This document shows positions 53,001 to 56,000 of a stretch of 64,000 nucleotides of DNA, piece after piece (positions within the stretch are counted from its first letter, which is position 1; each line of letters opens with the position of its first letter). Position numbers: made by a program. This DNA is from Escherichia coli (GTDB lineage Bacteria; Pseudomonadota; Gammaproteobacteria; Enterobacterales; Enterobacteriaceae), in NCBI RefSeq assembly GCF_030013595.1, contig NZ_CP122768.1; one strand, 5' to 3'.

Positions 53001-56000
53001 CCGCCAGCAGATAGTACCAACCGAAGGTTTTAGAGACCCAGTCCAGCGTGCGTCCAATCCACAGGGCCGGGAAGTCGCGAAACAGGATCGTTGTCAGGGA
53101 AAACAACAAAATCAGTCCGGCGGAAGTGTAAAACACCACCGGATTGATTTTGTCCTTTTCCCTGCTGTGTGAAAGGTCTGTCATCCAGTATCCCCACTGT
53201 TATTGTTACCATTTAAAATCAAATTCGTAACAATTAAGACACATTTTATATTGAACGTCCAATCAATAACCGCTTTAATAGATAAACAACGCTGATGAAT
53301 GGAGTGGCGAAAATGCCCAAATTGGGGATGCAGTCGATCCGGCGCAGACAACTGATCGACGCCACGCTGGAAGCAATAAATGAAGTGGGCATGCACGATG
53401 CAACGATCGCGCAGATCGCCCGCCGTGCAGGCGTTTCTACGGGGATCATCAGCCACTATTTCAGGGACAAAAATGGTCTGCTAGAAGCAACCATGCGCGA
53501 TATCACCAGTCAGCTGCGTGACGCGGTTTTGAATCGATTACATGCACTTCCGCAGGGCAGTGCAGAGCAGCGATTACAGGCGATTGTTGACGGGAATTTC
53601 GATGAATCGCAGGTCAGTAATGCTGCGATGAAAGCCTGGTTGGCGTTTTGGGCCAGCAGTATGCATCAGCCGATGCTTTACCGTTTGCAGCAGGTGAGCA
53701 GCCGCCGCTTGTTGTCGAATCTGGTGAGCGAATTTCACCGCGAGTTACCGCGCCAACAGGCACAGGAAGCGGGCTACGGCCTTGCCGCGCTGATTGACGG
53801 ATTATGGCTGCGCGCGGCACTGAGCGGCAAACCGCTGGATAAACCTCTCGCACACTCGCTGACCCGTCACTTTATTACTCAGCATTTACCCACCGATTAA
53901 CCGAGGAGACGTGATGTCCCGAATGGCAGAACAGCAGCTTTATATACATGGTGGTTATACCTCCGCCACCAGCGGTCGCACCTTCGAGACCATTAACCCG
54001 GCCAACGGTAACGTGCTGGCGACCGTGCAGGCCGCCGGGCGTGAGGATGTCGATCGCGCCGTGAAGAGTGCCCAACAAGGGCAAAAAATCTGGGCGGCGA
54101 TGACCGCTATGGAACGCTCGCGTATTCTGCGTCGGGCCGTTGATATTCTGCGTGAACGCAATGACGAACTCGCAAAACTGGAAACCCTCGACACCGGAAA
54201 AGCGTATTCGGAAACCTCAACCGTCGATATCGTTACCGGCGCGGACGTGCTCGAGTACTACGCCGGGCTGATCCCGTCGCTGGAAGGCAGCCAGATCCCA
54301 TTGCGTGAGACGTCATTTGTCTATACCCGCCGCGAACCGCTGGGCGTAGTGGCAGGGATTGGCGCATGGAACTACCCGATCCAGATTGCCTTGTGGAAAT
54401 CCGCACCGGCGCTGGCGGCAGGCAACGCGATGATTTTCAAACCGAGCGAAGTCACCCCGCTTACCGCGTTAAAGCTGGCCGAAATTTACAGCGAAGCGGG
54501 CCTGCCGGACGGCGTATTTAACTTGCTGCCGGGCGTGGGCGCGGAAACCGGGCAGTATCTGACCGAGCATCCGGGCATTGCCAAAGTGTCATTTACCGGC
54601 GGTGTCGCCAGCGGCAAAAAAGTGATGGCTAACTCGGCGGCTTCCTCCCTGAAAGAAGTGACCATGGAGCTGGGCGGTAAATCACCGCTGATCGTTTTCG
54701 ACGATGCAGACCTCGATCTCGCCGCTGATATCGCCATGATGGCGAACTTCTTCAGCTCCGGTCAGGTGTGTACCAACGGCACCCGCGTCTTCGTTCCGGC
54801 GAAATGCAAAGCCGCATTTGAACAAAAGATTCTGGCGCGCGTTGAGCGCATTCGCGCGGGCGACGTTTTCGATCCGCAAACTAACTTTGGCCCGCTGGTC
54901 AGCTTCCCGCATCGCGATAACGTGCTGCGTTACATCGCCAAAGGCAAAGAGGAAGGAGCGCGCGTACTGTGCGGCGGCGATGTACTGAAAGGCGATGGCT
55001 TCGATAACGGCGCATGGGTTGCACCGACCGTGTTCACCGATTGCCGCGACGAAATGACCATCGTGCGCGAAGAGATCTTCGGTCCGGTGATGTCGCTTCT
55101 CACTTATGAATCTGAGGACGAAGTGATTCGCCGCGCCAATGATACCGACTACGGCCTGGCGGCGGGCATCGTGACGGCGGACCTGAACCGCGCGCATCGC
55201 GTCATTCATCAGCTGGAAGCGGGTATTTGCTGGATCAACACCTGGGGCGAATCCCCTGCTGAGATGCCCGTTGGCGGCTACAAACACTCCGGCATTGGTC
55301 GCGAGAACGGCGTGATGACGCTCCAGAGTTACACCCAGGTGAAGTCCATCCAGGTTGAGATGGCTAAATTCCAGTCCATATTCTAACCAGGAGGTTTATT
55401 TGCAATTTGACTACATCATTATTGGTGCCGGCTCAGCTGGCAACGTTCTCGCTACCCGTCTGACTGAAGATCCGAACACAACCGTGCTGCTGCTTGAAGC
55501 AGGCGGCCCGGACTATCGCTTTGACTTCCGCACCCAGATGCCCGCCGCGCTGGCATTCCCGTTACAGGGTAAACGCTATAACTGGGCCTATGAGACGGAA
55601 CCGGAACCGTTTATGAATAACCGTCGCATGGAGTGCGGACGTGGTAAGGGGCTTGGCGGGTCATCACTGATCAACGGCATGTGTTACATCCGTGGTAACG
55701 CGCTGGATCTCGATAACTGGGCGCAAGAACCTGGTCTGGAGAACTGGAGCTACCTCGACTGTCTGCCCTACTATCGCAAGGCCGAGACTCGCGATGTGGG
55801 CGAGAACGACTACCACGGCGGTGATGGCCCGGTGAGCGTCACCACCTCCAAACCCGGCGTCAATCCGCTGTTTGAAGCGATGATTGAAGCGGGCGTGCAG
55901 GCGGGCTACCCGCGCACGGACGATCTCAACGGCTATCAGCAGGAAGGTTTTGGCCCGATGGATCGCACCGTCACGCCGCATGGCCGTCGCGCCAGCACCG

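Follow-up and report, generated by a model that had tools for sequence, protein, structure and literature searches.

A long-annotated TTG as the very probable initiation codon of Escherichia coli betA, behind a full-consensus Shine-Dalgarno sequence

In Escherichia coli the gene betA (choline dehydrogenase) follows betB (betaine-aldehyde dehydrogenase) at a very short distance, and the first codon of its apparent reading frame is TTG. The questions raised by this locus are whether the TTG is the true initiation codon and whether it belongs to the species or is a peculiarity of one strain. They were addressed in a stretch of 64,000 nucleotides (hereafter the window) from the E. coli assembly GCF_030013595.1, contig NZ_CP122768.1; all positions are those of the window and all features lie on the + strand. 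In E. coli, the authentic start of betA is almost certainly the long-annotated TTG at 55400, which the initiator tRNA reads as (f)Met.

The gene order in the window is betT / betI-betB-betA, according to the map of open reading frames and to the RefSeq annotation of strain N3. At this locus N3 and the window are 100% identical, and the N3 coordinates were transferred by an offset of + 53249. The betB coding sequence occupies 53914..55386 in this annotation, and a GTG at 53911 directly precedes the annotated betB ATG at 53914. The betB stop codon TAA (55384-55386) is found 13 nt before the betA TTG. Within this gap, and beginning 2 nt past the stop, lies the Shine-Dalgarno (SD) sequence AGGAGG (55389..55394), which pairs with the 3' tail of the 16S rRNA. 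It is followed by a 5-nt spacer composed of A and T only, TTTAT (55395..55399), and by the TTG itself (55400..55402). The whole junction reads TCC ATA TTC TAA CC AGGAGG TTTAT TTG CAA TTT GAC TAC ATC ATT ATT GGT GCC GGC. A sequence-only reading of this DNA had described a perfect AGGAGG with TTG CAA TTT GAC TAC 6 nt behind it, and this description is accurate: the T of TTG is the sixth nucleotide after the last G of the SD, with 5 nt intervening. Reading from the TTG meets no stop before the TGA at 57086-57088, and the betA coding sequence (55400..57088) comprises 562 codons plus the stop codon, in agreement with the open reading frame, the RefSeq annotation of N3 and the TIGR01810 match. A betB-betA fusion or read-through product was considered as well and is ruled out by the betB TAA and by the different frame of betA.

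Upstream of the TTG the betA frame is closed by a TGA at 55340..55342, which limits any N-terminal extension to at most 19 codons. Between this TGA and TTG 55400 the betA frame contains no ATG, and its only start-like codon is a second TTG at 55355..55357, inside betB. The sequence-only reading had placed the only in-frame upstream ATG inside betB; this point has to be corrected, as the ATG concerned, at 55360, is in the frame of betB and offset by 2 relative to betA. The correction favors the assignment, since an in-frame upstream stop and the lack of any ATG make a stronger case for the start at TTG 55400. Reading on from the in-frame stop, the TTG at 55355 is the first codon that could serve as a start, and translation from it would add a 15-residue extension before LQFDY. 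It has no SD, and its duplex with the anti-SD amounts to only -3.8 kcal/mol, against -11.0 kcal/mol for the betA SD. RefSeq does not start betA at this codon either. A start at TTG 55355 is thus regarded as very improbable.

The betA SD is stronger than expected by chance. The + strand of the window contains 957 TTG triplets; an equally strong pairing within the 20 nt upstream is found for only three of them, and two of these three use the SD of betA itself. The sequence features of canonical SD-dependent initiation are present, namely the AGGAGG, 5 intervening nt (in a canonical range of 5-9 nt) and a codon of the AUG/GUG/UUG type. The 71 nt around the betA start fold more weakly than shuffled sequences (z = +1.18), as is expected for an accessible ribosome-binding site. 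Strong SDs are commonly found together with weak start codons. UUG belongs to the standard start codons of E. coli: about 3% of the genes begin with it, and initiation at GUG and UUG reaches 10-100% of the AUG level (bioRxiv 10.1101/063800). Compared with E. coli UUG-initiated genes in general, betA of the window has the same minority codon read by fMet-tRNA and shows nothing distinctive.

These features suggest how initiation may proceed. The full-consensus AGGAGG 5 nt upstream, placed in an A/T-rich and weakly structured stretch, would recruit or retain the 30S subunit, and its near-optimal spacing would set the P site on the UUG. In this way the strong SD would offset a codon that is intrinsically weaker than AUG. 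Ribosomes that finish betB would terminate on top of the betA SD and TTG. Given that the betB stop lies 13 nt upstream, the synthesis of BetA is probably coupled to that of BetB within the betIBA operon, to judge from the geometry of the stop, SD and start.

The identity of the encoded protein fixes the N-terminus within narrow limits. The window protein scores 1027.7 bits against the NCBIfam betA equivalog TIGR01810 (cut-off 732.1) and 1003.1 bits against NF002550 (cut-off 605). With TIGR01810 above its cut-off, the protein is identified from its sequence as the BetA choline dehydrogenase, a GMC oxidoreductase. Position 1 of TIGR01810 falls on residue 4 of BetA, whereas position 4 of NF002550 falls on residue 1. 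This register places the N-terminus within three residues of the start at TTG 55400, and profiles that begin at most three residues from this start also speak against the upstream TTG 55355. Immediately after the start, codons 9-14 (55424..55441) encode GAGSAG, which has the form of the N-terminal GxGxxG dinucleotide (FAD)-binding motif. With Gln as residue 2, the initiator Met would be expected to stay on the protein, given the established specificity of methionine aminopeptidase.

The position of this motif also bears on a start further downstream, either at the ATG of codon 46 or at a near-cognate ATC or ATT among codons 6-8. The betA frame has its first canonical AUG at codon 46, 3' of the motif at residues 9-14. 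Initiation at any of these codons would delete the GxGxxG or begin within two codons of it. The first 200 residues of BetA share 86-97% amino-acid identity across genera, and residues 2-45, which a start at codon 46 would remove, are strongly conserved. Such a downstream start is extremely improbable.

The sequence-only reading had left open whether the TTG is a strain difference from K-12, and had proposed an alignment with K-12 betA as a check. The alignment excludes a difference of this kind: K-12 MG1655 carries the identical TTG, and RefSeq starts betA at precisely this codon both in N3 and in K-12 MG1655. Over 161 nt of the junction, the window departs from K-12 at one synonymous site, which lies downstream of the start. 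Compared with K-12 betA (b0311, NC_000913.3), not one nucleotide is changed from the SD through the spacer and the TTG to codon 12, and the betT / betI-betB-betA order and the 13-nt betB-betA gap are the same. The first 600 nt of the window betA have diverged from K-12 by about 5.7%, with the start unaffected.

The start codon is equally uniform across the species. A 301-nt query spanning the junction finds a match in 5179 of 5426 complete E. coli genomes, where it falls on betB and betA. Of 5183 E. coli records, 5107 share the 61-mer at 55370-55430 without a difference, so at most 76 (1.5%) vary somewhere within it. Otherwise identical versions of the 61-mer with ATG or GTG in place of the TTG have no exact match in any E. 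coli record. One alternative is that an ancestral ATG has mutated to TTG in this strain only, or was misread in sequencing, so that the start of betA would be altered or impaired here. The 61-mer shared with K-12 and nearly all records, the unmatched ATG and GTG versions, and the occurrence of the same TTG in four other named genera leave this explanation with a practically negligible probability.

Further observations concern the surroundings of the junction. The window BetA has 562 residues and K-12 BetA 556, with no effect on the start, because a run of seven A's (57062-57068) near the 3' end of the gene replaces the six A's of K-12. The K-12 gene ends in GCG AAA AAA TGA, and that of the window in GCG AAA AAA ATG AGT CGT GAT GTG AAC TGA, which adds MSRDVN; RefSeq gives the 562-residue form in strain N3. 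Beyond betA, the intergenic segment between betA and ykgH (57100-57550) is practically unalignable with K-12 (61-79 differences per 100 nt), the bet genes showing about 4-5 differences per 100 nt, and this comparison suggests that the segment was replaced or inserted. Between 55300 and 55399 the window and K-12 do not differ at all, the flanking bet sequence having 2-13 differences per 100 nt. Divergence from K-12 peaks at 53600-53899 (the 3' half of betI) and at 55600-55699, with 9-13 differences per 100 nt. The uneven pattern of differences suggests a mosaic recombination history of the bet locus. The betB-betA junction is missing from 247 of the 5426 complete E. coli genomes, and in 10 places it is carried by a plasmid. 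For strain A20 the gene bears only the annotation 'GMC family oxidoreductase N-terminal domain-containing protein', which points to a truncated betA.

Initiation at the K-12 TTG has been observed in vitro. In INRI-seq, a synthetic pool of K-12 5' regions is translated in a cell-free system with retapamulin, and the stalled initiating ribosomes are mapped (PMC9825163). In the betA transcript of this pool, 30 nt of the native upstream region precede TTGCAATTTGAC..., and the sequence agrees with the window up to and including codon 12 (Table S6, PMC9825163). The annotated K-12 betA start, 327247(-), was detected in five of five replicates, at 104.8, 89.4, 84.6, 69.7 and 91.3 CPM (Table S2, PMC9825163). 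As the transcript begins at -30, the upstream TTG at -45 and betB lie outside it (PMC9825163). The assay thus demonstrates that ribosomes initiate at the K-12 betA TTG in vitro without translation of betB (PMC9825163). It bears on a downstream start as well: the transcript extends to roughly +150 nt, and the list of alternative sites contains no betA entry (Table S3, PMC9825163). The in vivo Ribo-RET value for betA is 0 (PMC9825163), presumably because the operon was not induced in the growth conditions used. The accessible part of the TRAINSPOTTER N-terminomics supplement holds no entry for betA or P17444, and a search of the literature for mention of this start codon returned nothing relevant. 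Regarding the neighboring genes, an alternative in-frame ATG 9 nt inside K-12 betB (MSRM...) is listed (Table S3, PMC9825163), and the annotated start of K-12 betI has zero INRI-seq signal in all replicates (Table S2, PMC9825163).

The comparison across genera was based on one genome per species, scanned for a degenerate DNA pattern encoding FDYII[IV]GAGSAGN; Klebsiella and Shigella, among others, lay outside the sample. The scan yielded at least 120 loci, and GAGSAG is found in all of them by construction, being part of the search pattern. At each locus the candidate was the in-frame start codon closest to the pattern on its 5' side. In nine loci among the matches listed it is a TTG that precedes FDY by two codons; GGAGG lies 5 nt and the betB stop 13 nt upstream of this TTG. 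They belong to five Enterobacter, Lelliottia nimipressuralis, Pseudocitrobacter faecalis, Citrobacter sp. R56 and one unclassified MAG. In another 16 of the matches listed an ATG occupies the same codon position (M-E/V-FDY), in genera that include Pluralibacter, Kosakonia, Cedecea, Pantoea, Tatumella and Xenorhabdus. The other 95 loci among the matches listed also have ATG, 94 of them at 3-6 codons before FDY and one, unclear, at 17 codons; the group with 3-6 codons includes Pseudomonas, Halomonas and related genera, and Erwinia.

The ATG found at the homologous codon in these relatives fixes the position of the betA start. In the six genera named, the start stands at the same place as in the window, two codons before FDYIIIGAG, and a GAGG-type SD lies directly after betB. 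On the other hand, their start codon is ATG, residue 2 is Glu or Val (Gln in the window), and the intergenic spacers are unrelated. The distribution of the two codons suggests that ATG is ancestral and that a single ATG-to-TTG change took place in the ancestor of Escherichia, Citrobacter and Enterobacter. Regarding the upstream TTG 55355, a counterpart (the candidate at 17 codons) is present in all species of the TTG clade. Its conservation is explained by its location inside the conserved betB coding sequence. Moreover, at 12 of the 16 loci with the homologous ATG, among the matches listed, this ATG is the sole in-frame start candidate downstream of the stop that closes the frame.

For the start at TTG 55400, RefSeq, the ATG of other genera, the NCBIfam register, the strength of the SD and the INRI-seq data all agree, and the main claim of the sequence-only reading, that betA initiates at this TTG, is well founded. 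Being the reference-annotated start of the whole species, the TTG is already known and is an ordinary feature of the gene.

A separate matter is whether selection maintains the TTG. The betA genes of Enterobacter, Lelliottia, Citrobacter and Pseudocitrobacter have the same TTG codon, the same GGAGG 5 nt upstream and the same betB stop 13 nt upstream. The first base of their SD is G (CCGGGAGG), whereas it is A in the window, and at third codon positions they share only 55-76% identity with the window. The GGAGG core, its spacing and the TTG are invariant in 10 of 10 sequences of the TTG clade, and the spacer is TTT[A/T]T in all species. Most synonymous positions of betA codons 2-8 are invariant across the clade too. 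Among four-fold degenerate sites, 6 of 86 (7%) are invariant when ten sequences are compared. To judge from these alignments, the whole initiation region of betA looks constrained at the nucleotide level. With about 10 related lineages, the chance that one free site is invariant amounts to roughly 0.07-0.2, and conservation of the start-codon base is only weak statistical evidence of selection.

A TTG held by selection rather than by history, and kept together with the full-consensus SD throughout the Escherichia-Citrobacter-Enterobacter-Lelliottia group and in about 5,100 E. coli genomes, is viewed as a rather doubtful proposition, with which the low share of invariant four-fold degenerate sites (7%) is nevertheless compatible. 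The INRI-seq peaks of betA (70-105 CPM) are higher than those of betB (29-52 CPM) (PMC9825163), a comparison that does not support a TTG keeping BetA below BetB but is not decisive, retapamulin peak height being no clean measure of the initiation rate. The betA peak is the higher one even though its transcript is the scarcer of the two, at 55.6 CPM against 97.3 CPM for betB (PMC9825163). Because the betA peak exceeds that of betB, selection on the TTG is not strongly supported. If it were true, the selected TTG could fix the BetA:BetB ratio so that toxic betaine aldehyde does not build up. It could also make the synthesis of BetA sensitive to IF3-dependent start-codon discrimination in osmotic or cold stress.

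For betA, both gene callers and the reference annotation have the start right. The design of a weak codon behind a strong SD is conserved in several enterobacterial genera and provides a clean natural case in which to study how the choice of start codon may tune enzyme ratios within an operon.
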